From: a virus
Virus genome (UHGV): UHGV-1493261
Direction: 5' to 3' (one strand)
DNA length: 64,000 nt
Shown here: positions 45,531 through 49,252 of the stretch, piece after piece
How positions within the stretch are numbered: position 1 is the stretch's first letter
Layout: each line of letters opens with the position of its first letter
Made by a program: the position numbers and the translations under genes
The notes under the pieces: model-generated
Databases searched by the model: none
The model's input: only the letters and a program-made list of their open reading frames with translations
Told to the model about the DNA's origin: nothing

Positions 45531-46087
45531 ATTTCAATCCCCAGATTGGTGTATAACAACTCAGACAGGGTTACAGGGCGCTTGAATTGTTCCCAACTAC
45601 AGTTCAGGTATTCACGTTCTTCACGCATTTCACTGTGAAGATGACCATGGATATTATACGCCCAGCGGTCTAATTGATAAGGAACGTGAGTGGTCAACAC
45701 ACGACCAACCGGAGTATCACGCTCATACATCGCACCAAAGGAGCTAATCCATCCCTCTTGATACAGCTGCATCAACATCTTGAAGCTGTCATGGTTGCCT
45801 TGCGCCACCCTGATGATAAAGTTCGGACGCCAGTCATCGGGAACCGGGCGGCGCTTGAACTCATCAATATTCCTCTTGGCACCCTCGCGCATCAGGCGAA
45901 TGAACCCCTCAGCCCCGATGAAGCAGATGTCCCCAGCCAGTTCAAGGACGTCTCGGGACTTCAGCCCCTGAAAGATACTGTCGATAACTGCAGCATCATG
46001 TGCCTCTTGGGTATCGAACCCACGGGGATTGAAGATCTTCTTGTGCCCAAGGTGGGTGTCGCCCAGATACTTTACAATTCCTGCCAT
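45527..46087 (-). CDS. calcineurin-like metallophosphoesterase
   Basis: GDTHLGH and GNHD motifs; start probably the Met at 46087. Confidence 0.6.
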
Positions 46088-46515
46088 TATGGTTTCCTCA
46101 ACCATTCTAAAATCGGTACGTTCACAAACCCTTTATGCCAGCGATGGGGTTTATGGCCTCTGTTGTGTTCGAGCAAACACGTGTCCGGTGGGACACTGAA
46201 GTGGATGCCGTCGATGTCGTAGTAATGCCCATCAATCAGAGTATACACATGACCTTCGGTCTGACTGTAATGGATCTCTGCTTGAGGGTACACGTGCTTC
46301 AACAACAGAGCGACCTGGTAACACTTCCCGTTCTTCCCCACATACTCGACATCCACCTGTTGTGGAAACACATCTTTGACAAGGTTTATCAATCTCGTGA
46401 TGTCATTTACGACAACCGAACGTTTCATATCACCTCTCCCGAGGATTCGTTGGTGAACCAATGATACTCTATCCCGGATATAGAAAAGCCCCTCACGGGG
46501 CTTGATCGTCTTCAT
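46087..46515 (-). CDS. hypothetical protein (142 aa)
   Basis: ORF. Confidence 0.4.
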
Positions 46516-46795: not shown

Positions 46796-47424
46796 CCCAC
46801 AACCTCCAGTCCCATCAGATCTTCCATGGTCTTCTGAATACGCAGCCAGTCAAGCGCAGCGTCATAACGAGGGTCGTGATAGACCATACCTTCCAGTTCC
46901 CACGCCTTGATGCCAGCATACCGATCCTGCTGTCCAACACCCTTCAGCCAACTCACGATGTCGAACGTGTGGTGGTAATCCCATGGCTCGTTGGAGTCCT
47001 GCTTACACGTCACTTCAATGATGTGCTGAGCCTTGCGTAGATCGAACAAGTTACGGTCACACCAGTCAACCGAGCGCGGGTCTACCCCAAGACGATGACA
47101 ACCCTTGCGGATTTCATCGGCCAATTGGAAGATAGAGATGTCATCTTCCTTGGGATACAGACTGACGGCGCGAGCCGCATCACACGGGTTGCGCTTGCCC
47201 GTGCCCAGCCACCATTCAACTGTCCCAGCGTCCTTCACGCGACCAAGTTCGAGCTGCTCTTTGACATTCAGCTTAATGAACGTCGTGCGCTCCTCAACCA
47301 GCTGCTGAAGAGTATAACGCTTGGTCAGGTCGGCGATGGTGTGTGCCCAAGACAGCATGACTGCATCATCCCAGCGCCCCAGGGTTTCGCTGTCGGCCAC
47401 AGCCAAAAAATTTGATTTATACAT
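46792..47424 (-). CDS. DEDD-family 3'-5' exonuclease (DexA-like)
   Basis: Exo I-like ADSET and Exo III-like YHDPRYDA. Confidence 0.5.
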   Translation of the reverse strand: MYKSNFLAVADSETLGRWDDAVMLSWAHTIADLTKRYTLQQLVEERTTFIKLNVKEQLELGRVKDAGTVEWWLGTGKRNPCDAARAVSLYPKEDDISIFQLADEIRKGCHRLGVDPRSVDWCDRNLFDLRKAQHIIEVTCKQDSNEPWDYHHTFDIVSWLKGVGQQDRYAGIKAWELEGMVYHDPRYDAALDWLRIQKTMEDLMGLEVVG

Positions 47425-47668
47425 GTTTATTCTCCCAACACTTTATTTTGGCTTTTACTGTATAATAATTTTCATCAATGAACTTTTTGTTGACGCGCTT
47501 AATTTCTATCTCTGGGCAAAGTAACCCTATAGTTTCCCTCAAAATCTGGCTCACCCTGGCCTGTGAAATACAATAAATTTCTGATACTTCTTTCGAACTA
47601 GATCCAGACATGACAAGTTTTAGAATATTGACCTTTTTATAAAATTCTTGATCAAACGCGCATATCAT
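47417..47668 (-). CDS. small sigma-70 region-4-like HTH protein
   Basis: EVSEIYCISQARVSQILRETI resembles sigma region 4.2; the gene is strongly AT-rich. Confidence 0.4.
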   Translation of the reverse strand: MICAFDQEFYKKVNILKLVMSGSSSKEVSEIYCISQARVSQILRETIGLLCPEIEIKRVNKKFIDENYYTVKAKIKCWENKHV

Positions 47669-47671
47669 TAT

Positions 47672-48286
47672 TCACCCCTCCTCGTCGATGATTTCTTGCT
47701 CATCTTCGACAATCATGATACCTTCTGTGTCTAGATGAGAAAGTTCCATCAGATCATCATCGAATCCGTCTCCTTCCCTGATATAGAAGACTGGGACGAC
47801 ACGGCGGCGGGTCTCTTCATACACGCTTTCAGAGATTCGATTGATATGGCGCACTACACTGTAGAGGTTCAGGCCACCAATACCACAGCCGATAGCAGGC
47901 AGGCCGACATAGACAGTTTCGTCTTTAGTTGCTTCCACAATTTCATGCACCTGCTCAAACAGGGTCTGAACAGAACTGATGACTGACGGCATTCGAGCGT
48001 TCGGGCCTGGATAAAACTGAGTGTAGAGGTTCGCACCCCAGACACCAGTGCTATGGTCAAATGCATAGGACATGCCACCCAGGCGTTGCTCTGGACCACG
48101 AGGGTCGTTCGCATCGACTTCGCGCAGCGCTGGGAAGTTGTTGCCGATGTGCAGGGCAATACCCGCGCCCATGGTAGACCAACAGTTGGCACCGTGGGCA
48201 AAGATGTCGATCAGATTGAAGCTACAGGCGGCTTTCAGTAAATCGCCGCCATTGATTACATAGGCTGTCATGCGTACTGTCTCCAT
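47672..48286 (-). CDS. macro-domain protein (ADP-ribose binding/processing)
   Basis: Macro-like N-terminal pattern VINGGDLL...FAHGANCWSTMGAGIA. Confidence 0.5.
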   Translation of the reverse strand: METVRMTAYVINGGDLLKAACSFNLIDIFAHGANCWSTMGAGIALHIGNNFPALREVDANDPRGPEQRLGGMSYAFDHSTGVWGANLYTQFYPGPNARMPSVISSVQTLFEQVHEIVEATKDETVYVGLPAIGCGIGGLNLYSVVRHINRISESVYEETRRRVVPVFYIREGDGFDDDLMELSHLDTEGIMIVEDEQEIIDEEG

Positions 48287-48510
48287 TCAATAATGCTGTT
48301 GTCAACACATGACACCTGGATGATGCCTGTGCGGTGGTGATAATCAGTCATCTGCATGATAAAGTTGTTCCCATTGCGGATAATGGTGTTGACAACGATA
48401 CCCTTGGCAGCAAGGCGTATTACAATGGCAGTGCAAAGGCGGTCCATGTAACCGGACACAGAACCTGGTTCGAAGCATCGCTCGAACAGATTTTCAAATT
48501 CTGGGCTCAT
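48268..48510 (-). CDS. small hypothetical protein
   Basis: ORF. Confidence 0.35.
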   Translation of the reverse strand: MSPEFENLFERCFEPGSVSGYMDRLCTAIVIRLAAKGIVVNTIIRNGNNFIMQMTDYHHRTGIIQVSCVDNSIIEWRQYA

Positions 48511-48560
48511 TTGATGTTACCAAACAAGGGGTCGAGGCGGTAATAATACCGCCTTTTTCT

Positions 48561-48971
48561 TCAATAGAGGTCTTCTGAAAAGAGTTCGCGGAAAGGGGTT
48601 GTCTTCAGGCGCACCTGATTGATCTGCCCAGCTTCACGGGCTACGATGCATGCCTCTTCACGAGTGAGGAAGTTGCCCTGGTTGTCGATGAATCCCTGTT
48701 CGCGGGTATGGGTGGATTTAATGACGCCTGCTTCTTTCAGGATCTTGAGCTGGCTGTTCATGAATCGGCTGTGGTGACGGTCGGCAACGACGATTACATC
48801 ACCATATTTGTTGGCAGCAGCGACCACACGGCGCTCCCAGGCACCTTCGACAGGAAGTTCACGAGTGTACAATGGAATCATCGTATCACCGATGTCATCC
48901 CCCTTCACCTGTGAGAACAACTTGCCTTCAGTGCCCGTTGGGAGTTCACGAAAATATCCCAGTAATTTCAT
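48561..48971 (-). CDS. hypothetical protein (136 aa)
   Basis: ORF; start 3 nt after the stop of the frameshifted gene. Confidence 0.45.
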   Translation of the reverse strand: MKLLGYFRELPTGTEGKLFSQVKGDDIGDTMIPLYTRELPVEGAWERRVVAAANKYGDVIVVADRHHSRFMNSQLKILKEAGVIKSTHTREQGFIDNQGNFLTREEACIVAREAGQINQVRLKTTPFRELFSEDLY

Positions 48972-48974
48972 AAT

Positions 48975-49252
48975 CTATTCAATCCAAATTTCAGGTTCAG
49001 AGATGTCAACCATATCCACTGTCTGGTTCTTCAGATCATGGAAACAGTCGCCGAGGAATTGTATTTTGCCGTCGGTCAGGAACAGATGGCAAATGATGCT
49101 GGATCAGTTGCATTCACCAGCAGGCTCGGTGTGAACGTAGGCTCAATAACATTGTTGTTCCACGACCACATCGGACCTTGGGTTTCGCCCTTAATGCGAT
49201 ATAGATGAAGTATACCACACCCAGGACAATGAAAATACAAGGAATCATCCAT
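48975..49252 (-). pseudogene. Cys/His zinc-ribbon-like gene (about 93 aa) split by a single-nucleotide frameshift
   Basis: Frame 1 (49252 down to stop 49076) gives MDDSLYFHCPGCG...PTFTPSLLVNATDPAS; frame 2 (49103 down to stop 48975) gives CHLFLTDGKIQFLGDCFH...; one extra T in the TTT run at 49091-49093 (minus strand) joins them. Confidence 0.5.

Follow-up and report, generated by a model that had tools for sequence, protein, structure and literature searches.

The gene on the minus strand at positions 47672-48286 of the window (the whole 64,000-nt stretch of viral DNA that was analysed, UHGV virus genome UHGV-1493261) encodes a macrodomain protein that belongs, by homology, to the phage Tk.4/AdfM family. 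We consider it likely that this protein is a stand-alone DNA ADP-ribosylglycohydrolase, which would remove the thymidine-linked ADP-ribose attached by DarT2. The window belongs to a phage of the Ackermannviridae. Escherichia phage AV101 (Ackermannviridae, Aglimvirinae) shares 97.6% DNA identity with the 4 kb around the gene, and another 210 phage records match this region, most of them phages of Salmonella, Escherichia, Dickeya, and Shigella. For most of the closest relatives of the window, the host on record is E. coli. The gene already carries Tk.4-like or ADP-ribose-binding labels in GenBank relatives: the AV101 record notes its own copy as "Tk.4 protein", and the copy of Shigella phage ChubbyThor is labelled "putative ADP-ribose binding protein". 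It adds a member to a family that received its functional role recently, through work on T4 in 2025.

The reading frame was confirmed in the ORF list of the 64,000-nt window as an ORF of 204 aa with an ATG start, and residue numbering throughout refers to this longest ORF. Translation probably begins at the second ATG, at 48271 (Met6), since this codon forms an ATGA overlap with the TGA stop of the upstream gene and a Shine-Dalgarno-like GGAG (48281..48284, minus strand) lies 9 nt upstream of it. The first ATG (48286) has no comparable ribosome-binding site. The coding sequence would thus span 47672..48271 (minus strand) and comprise 199 aa plus the stop codon. The AV101 copy is annotated with 199 aa, consistent with a start at 48271, and orthologues open with MTTYVI. 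The last part of the upstream DUF7234 gene contains this GGAG; together with the ATGA overlap, this suggests translational coupling of the DUF7234 and macrodomain genes. Plus-strand ORFs within the macrodomain gene are short and without support. The gene is not a chance ORF, because its product matches PHROG 335 (E 4e-63), has 80 database homologues with invariant residues (many with a precomputed PF01661 match), and gives tblastn matches in 2447 of 50,697 phage records (~5%) from many host genera. An orthologue with at least 60% identity was found by tblastn in about 250 phage records. In Salmonella phage bering (NC_049502.1, 120921-121494), the orthologue match is split in two and lies under three "hypothetical proteins", and this Kuttervirus-like orthologue is represented in BFVD only by a 103-aa fragment (74% identity); this phage may have a frameshifted or split copy of the gene.

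The initial annotation had proposed a macro-domain protein from a glycine-rich pattern, and this pattern, FAHGANCWSTMGAGIA, is indeed present at residues 29-44 (48155-48202, minus strand). The single sequence falls below the threshold of Pfam Macro (PF01661), scoring 16.5 bits where 22 are required, with a partial match limited to residues 105-146, and the motif-based call therefore needed evidence from profiles and structures. T4 Tk.4 scores 27.7 bits on the same model, above the cut-off, and a phmmer search of the PDB with the single sequence retrieved DarG at E 0.023. A family profile, built from 55 aligned sequences among the 80 database homologues, matched in the PDB the DarG proteins of M. 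tuberculosis (E 2.2e-17) and T. aquaticus (E 1.6e-16), TARG1 (E 1.8e-14), Bacteroides Q8A8B0/BT1257 (E about 1e-12), SCO6735 (E 1e-12), and Poa1p (E 2.5e-11), with MacroD-type AF1521 reaching only E 5e-3. The sole NCBIfam match is antitoxin_DarG (E 2.5e-8), and DarG is also the best PADLOC match (E 2.8e-7). The AlphaFold2 model (pLDDT 96.2, pTM 0.92) presents the three-layer alpha/beta/alpha macro fold, and its top Foldseek matches include TARG1 (4j5r, ranked first, TMt 0.80), DarG (5m3e and 5m3i), and Poa1p.

Profile searches, predicted structure, and Foldseek matches thus agree that the protein is a real macrodomain, with a core at 47780..48271 (minus strand, residues 6-169). By the same profile and structural comparisons, which matched DarG, TARG1, and SCO6735, it is assigned to the ALC1-like class (TARG1, DarG, SCO6735, Poa1p) and not to the MacroD, PARG, or macroH2A types. 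Both features on which the initial annotation had made its macro-domain call depend, the fold itself and the ligand-binding residues, are present. The substrate cannot be read from the fold, because the phosphatase Poa1p, which acts on ADP-ribose-1''-phosphate, and the protein hydrolase TARG1 lie at nearly the same structural distance.

The predicted ADP-ribose-binding elements are conserved and align with the corresponding segments of DarG and TARG1. They include Asp15 in GDLL, Asn34 in HGAN(C), loop 1 (MGAGIA), and loop 2 (PAIGCGIGGL). Across the 55 aligned sequences, H31, G32, N34, C35, G42, N86, T89, Q90, G94, and P130 are invariant. The segment HGANCWSTMGAGIA (residues 31-44, 48155..48196, minus strand) contains Asn34 followed by the glycine-rich phosphate-binding loop 1, and its first residues read HGANC in 53 of the 55 members and HGCNC in the other two. 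In alignments to the DarG chains, Asn34 occupies the position of the active-site Asn22 of DarG; the active-site residues of DarG2 are N22 and K80 (PMC13309987). The second active-site position is different. The motif NLYTQ (residues 86-90, 48017..48031, minus strand) places Thr89-Gln90 at the Thr-Lys80 site of DarG and the Thr-Lys84 site of TARG1, and Gln90 coincides with these lysines in the alignments to 5m3i, 5m31, and 4j5r. TQ is found at the catalytic-Lys site in all 55 aligned members, 53 of them carrying NLYTQ and two the variants NFYTQ and NLGTQ, and it is also found in T4 Tk.4. The diphosphate-binding loop 2, PAIGCGIGGL (residues 130-139, 47870..47899, minus strand), has Gly137 at the site of Asp125 in the TARG1 segment "PRIGCGLDRL"; Lys84 and Asp125 form the catalytic dyad of TARG1 (PMC9411070). 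Judging from these alignments, the Tk.4 family is devoid of the Lys needed by DarG and TARG1.

The absence of this Lys does not imply inactivity, since SCO6735, which has a glutamine (Gln85) at the same site, is active: it removes thymidine-linked ADP-ribose from DNA and shields cells against DarT, and its Q85A mutant is inactive (PMC9411070). The equivalence of Gln90 and SCO6735 Gln85 is transitive, drawn through the alignments to DarG and TARG1. The invariant Gln in the 55 homologues and in T4 Tk.4 suggests that this widespread family may use an SCO6735-type rather than a DarG mechanism. A non-exhaustive literature search did not find this point made for the Tk.4 family. The most DarG-like member of the family, P0080, reaches E 2e-18 to M. 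tuberculosis DarG in phmmer, yet is of the Gln type ("NLGTQ"). It is encoded at positions 5001-5486 of L008, a phage-like metagenomic contig (Logan SRR35788915) with rIIB, endonuclease VII, and WhiB; a darT gene next to this Gln-type member was looked for on the contig and was not found.

Membership of the Tk.4/AdfM family is indicated by searches in both directions. BLASTP against T4 Tk.4 gave 33% identity (E 1e-15) over only about 115-130 residues, and tblastn of T4 Tk.4 against the window gave one significant match, the macrodomain ORF (E 5e-13). There is one match to the protein per T4-like genome. T4 Tk.4, which is outside the 55-member alignment, carries HGCNC and NLYTQ. Earlier work had established that T4 without AdfA and AdfN is still resistant to DarTG2, and a further anti-DarT factor was therefore predicted. 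When a T4 transposon library was grown on a host with DarTG2, tk.4 was the only T4 gene significantly depleted. A clean tk.4 deletion sensitised T4 to DarTG2, and the gene was renamed adfM, for "anti-DarT factor Macrodomain"; the evidence for this role of T4 Tk.4 is so far genetic and at preprint level (bioRxiv 10.1101/2025.11.20.689424). PhiKZ gp104, which is also named AdfM, was demonstrated biochemically to remove the ADP-ribose of DarT2 from DNA (Cell Rep 2026, PMC13309987). The DarTG2 systems of the cited studies defend E. coli. Since Tk.4 is of the Gln type and PhiKZ gp104 of the Lys type, macrodomain anti-DarT factors of phages would fall into two or more lineages, and the present gene belongs to the Gln-type Tk.4 lineage. 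The initial annotation had suggested a counter-defence enzyme against host ADP-ribosylation or NAD-derived signalling systems. Homology to T4 Tk.4 supports this idea and would narrow it to DarTG2.

The composition of the window is consistent with such a role. TNTC occurs 1034 and 1122 times, against about 986 and 1036 expected, and none of TNTC, TTTW, TCTC, and TTTC is depleted in the 64 kb. The phage therefore does not appear to escape by motif avoidance, and with DarT2-type motifs undepleted it is plausible that it relies on an enzymatic counter. On the other side, the thymidines of Ackermannviridae DNA are hypermodified, and this could change how much DarT2 matters to the phage. Neither T4 AdfN (gp30.3, NADAR) nor T4 Alt gave a significant homologue by tblastn against the 64-kb window (best E 0.46). 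A literature search combining Ackermannviridae with macrodomain or ADP-ribose returned no publication naming Ackermannviridae among the matches listed.

In the scenario that we favour, the protein would be made during infection as an orphan "antitoxin-like" enzyme. Host DarT2 would put ADP-ribose on thymidines of single-stranded phage DNA, thereby blocking replication, and the protein would bind the ADP-ribose and hydrolyse the base-ribose bond, so that replication could continue. Catalysis may be water-activated and Gln-assisted, as proposed for SCO6735, rather than Lys-based as in DarG and TARG1, given the invariant Gln at the Lys position. We infer the anti-DarT2 role from T4 genetics and the DNA-thymidine substrate from the biochemistry of DarG, PhiKZ AdfM, and SCO6735. 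Against this reading, the one phage AdfM with a biochemical test, PhiKZ gp104, is of the Lys type and only ~20% identical, and the Lys of DarG is missing here.

The protein could also serve more generally, removing ADP-ribose from proteins or RNA modified by other host ADP-ribosyltransferase toxins or defences or by phage transferases. The best structure and sequence matches include the protein-Glu/Asp hydrolase TARG1, SCO6735 acts on protein as well as DNA substrates (PMC9411070), and a family found in ~5% of phage records, across many host genera, is spread more broadly than might be expected for a single target system. We nevertheless regard this broader activity as unlikely: functional data within the family exist only for T4 Tk.4 and implicate DarTG2, no other T4 gene having been significantly depleted in the transposon library; the Lys84/Asp125 dyad of TARG1 is replaced by Gln90 and Gly137; and tblastn found no homologue of the T4 Alt ADP-ribosyltransferase in the 64-kb window. 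An action on free ADP-ribose metabolites, whether as a Poa1p-like Appr-1''-p phosphatase, in O-acetyl-ADP-ribose deacetylation, or in the degradation of NAD-derived immune signals, would fit "A1pp phosphatase", the historical annotation of both T4 Tk.4 and PHROG 335. However, such labels were transferred from the domain name and not from tested activities, and DarG outscores Poa1p in every sequence search. The T4 phenotype is moreover specific to DarTG2, and a scan of nine neighbouring proteins revealed neither a Tpt1-like nor a sirtuin partner, all of which makes a metabolite substrate very unlikely.

Another alternative to a DNA ADP-ribosylglycohydrolase is a protein that mainly binds, as a stoichiometric inhibitor or sponge of DarT2 or of another transferase, perhaps with its acidic tail as a nucleic-acid mimic. 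This tail, the C-terminal extension of residues 170-204 (47675..47779, minus strand), comprises 35 residues, of which 15 are acidic and one is basic (net charge -14), and is modelled as helix-strand-helix (H176-182, E190-193, H196-203) with pLDDT 93-98. It is specific to the Ackermannviridae-type clade, in which orthologues have 31-43 residues beyond the last macro strand with a tail net charge of -6 to -16; T4-type proteins stop 1-6 residues after that strand. PDB macrodomains leave the extension uncovered (TMq 0.48-0.62), and it is covered by the orthologue of Serratia phage phiMAM1 as modelled in BFVD (TMq 0.83, 202 columns). A confidently folded element that stays acidic across the clade would suit a binding role, as would the observations that SCO6735, DarG, and TARG1, even when catalytically dead, inhibit DarT through interaction (PMC9411070) and that the ICP1 factor AdfB acts through direct binding. 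On the other hand, N34, T89-Q90, and both Gly loops are invariant in 55 divergent sequences, which argues for a retained enzymatic function, and T4 Tk.4 works without such an extension, so that a mainly binding protein seems hardly probable. A speculative combination, to which we give little credence, is that the Ackermannviridae Tk.4-type protein is a two-mode anti-DarT factor, in which the Gln core erases ADP-ribose and the acidic module mimics ssDNA and occupies the DNA-binding groove of DarT2 or of another DNA-targeting defence protein. If true, an unrelated 35-residue element would have taken over the function that the DarT-binding domain serves in DarG.

The macrodomain gene is part of a co-oriented block that contains the genes for the large and medium subunits of topoisomerase II, an Arn.3-like protein, the DUF7234 protein, the macrodomain protein, an 83-aa HTH-like ORF, the DexA exonuclease, a YunG-like protein, a phosphoesterase, and a dCMP deaminase. 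These genes resemble early or replication-associated genes of T4. A scan for sigma-70-type promoters between 44 and 54 kb found 11 sites, against 11.3 expected by chance, and since this is no excess, it is from the neighbour genes only that we infer "early" expression of the macrodomain gene. The proposal of the initial annotation that this is an early accessory gene is thus in keeping with the T4-early-like neighbours, and the promoter scan added no independent support to it.

The 83-aa HTH-like ORF (47417-47668, minus strand), the next gene downstream of the macrodomain gene, gave HTH matches that all stay below threshold (Sigma70_r4, 16.5 bits; GerE, 16.4 bits) and no match in the PHROG search. 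It resembles a variable small insert, because it is present in AV101 and absent from ChubbyThor, where DexA directly adjoins the macrodomain gene. Upstream, the 80-aa DUF7234 protein (48268-48510, minus strand) is assigned by Pfam (E 7.7e-41) and to PHROG 5593, and it is preceded by a 136-aa protein of PHROG 839 (48561-48971, minus strand), noted in AV101 as "Arn.3 conserved hypothetical protein". The ChubbyThor label of this 136-aa neighbour, "putative tRNA processing enzyme", was considered and set aside, as the protein has no Pfam match and its PHROG is of unknown function; a Tpt1-like tRNA-splicing partner adjoining the gene was accordingly rejected as support for an Appr-1''-p phosphatase. 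Between the Arn.3-like and DUF7234 genes, a strong terminator-like hairpin of 9 pairs (5 G-C) followed by a T-run was called on the plus strand (48534-48555), with the surrounding genes all on the minus strand. Other small conserved phage genes of the block encode a 58-aa DUF6527 protein (49076-49252, minus strand) and the YunG-like protein (46087-46515, minus strand; PF24591, E 6.6e-43).

If the proposed anti-DarT2 function is right, phages of the Ackermannviridae carry a dedicated enzymatic counter to DarTG2. This family includes the Kuttervirus and Agtrevirus types, whose use is being considered against Salmonella, E. coli O157, and Shigella, and such a counter would bear on host range and on the choice of therapeutic phages for DarTG2-carrying strains.

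A number of similarities and differences with known macrodomain proteins can be noted. DarG (NF048014; M. tuberculosis 5m3i, T. aquaticus 5m31/5m3e) has a C-terminal DarT-binding domain that is absent here, the match covering model positions 6-135 of 338 with 33.6 bits against a cut-off of 250. The catalytic Lys80 of T. aquaticus DarG is replaced by the invariant Gln90, and no darT gene adjoins the macrodomain gene, a Pfam scan of the neighbours giving no DarT-like match. Human TARG1/C6orf130, the top Foldseek match, shares loop 1 (MGAGIA), but it is primarily a protein-Glu/Asp hydrolase and relies on the Lys84/Asp125 dyad where Gln90 and Gly137 are found here. SCO6735 (PDB 5e3b) is likewise a stand-alone ALC1-like macrodomain with Gln at the catalytic-Lys position, according to the transitive alignment. 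Unlike the phage protein, it is bacterial and DNA-damage-regulated, and it is structurally less similar than DarG or TARG1 (Foldseek rank 49, TMt 0.62). The Gln of SCO6735 is followed by an extended, Lys-rich mobile loop (Lys89, Lys93). The putative counterpart of that loop after Gln90 here, QFYPGPNARMPS, contains one Arg and no Lys. PhiKZ gp104 AdfM is, like T4 Tk.4, a stand-alone phage macrodomain countering DarTG2, and hhalign matches it to the family profile (98% probability, E 1.6e-13). It is nevertheless ~20% identical, is of the Lys type ("FPTK", K78) as DarG is, and is imported into the phage nucleus. It represents a separate lineage under the same name. T4 Tk.4 is a stand-alone phage macrodomain with HG[AC]NC and NLYTQ motifs, and DarG is the sole NCBIfam match for both proteins. 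At 155 aa, T4 Tk.4 is without the 35-residue acidic C-terminal extension, and its gene is flanked by vs and tk.3 in T4 instead of the DUF7234 gene, the HTH-like ORF, and DexA found here.
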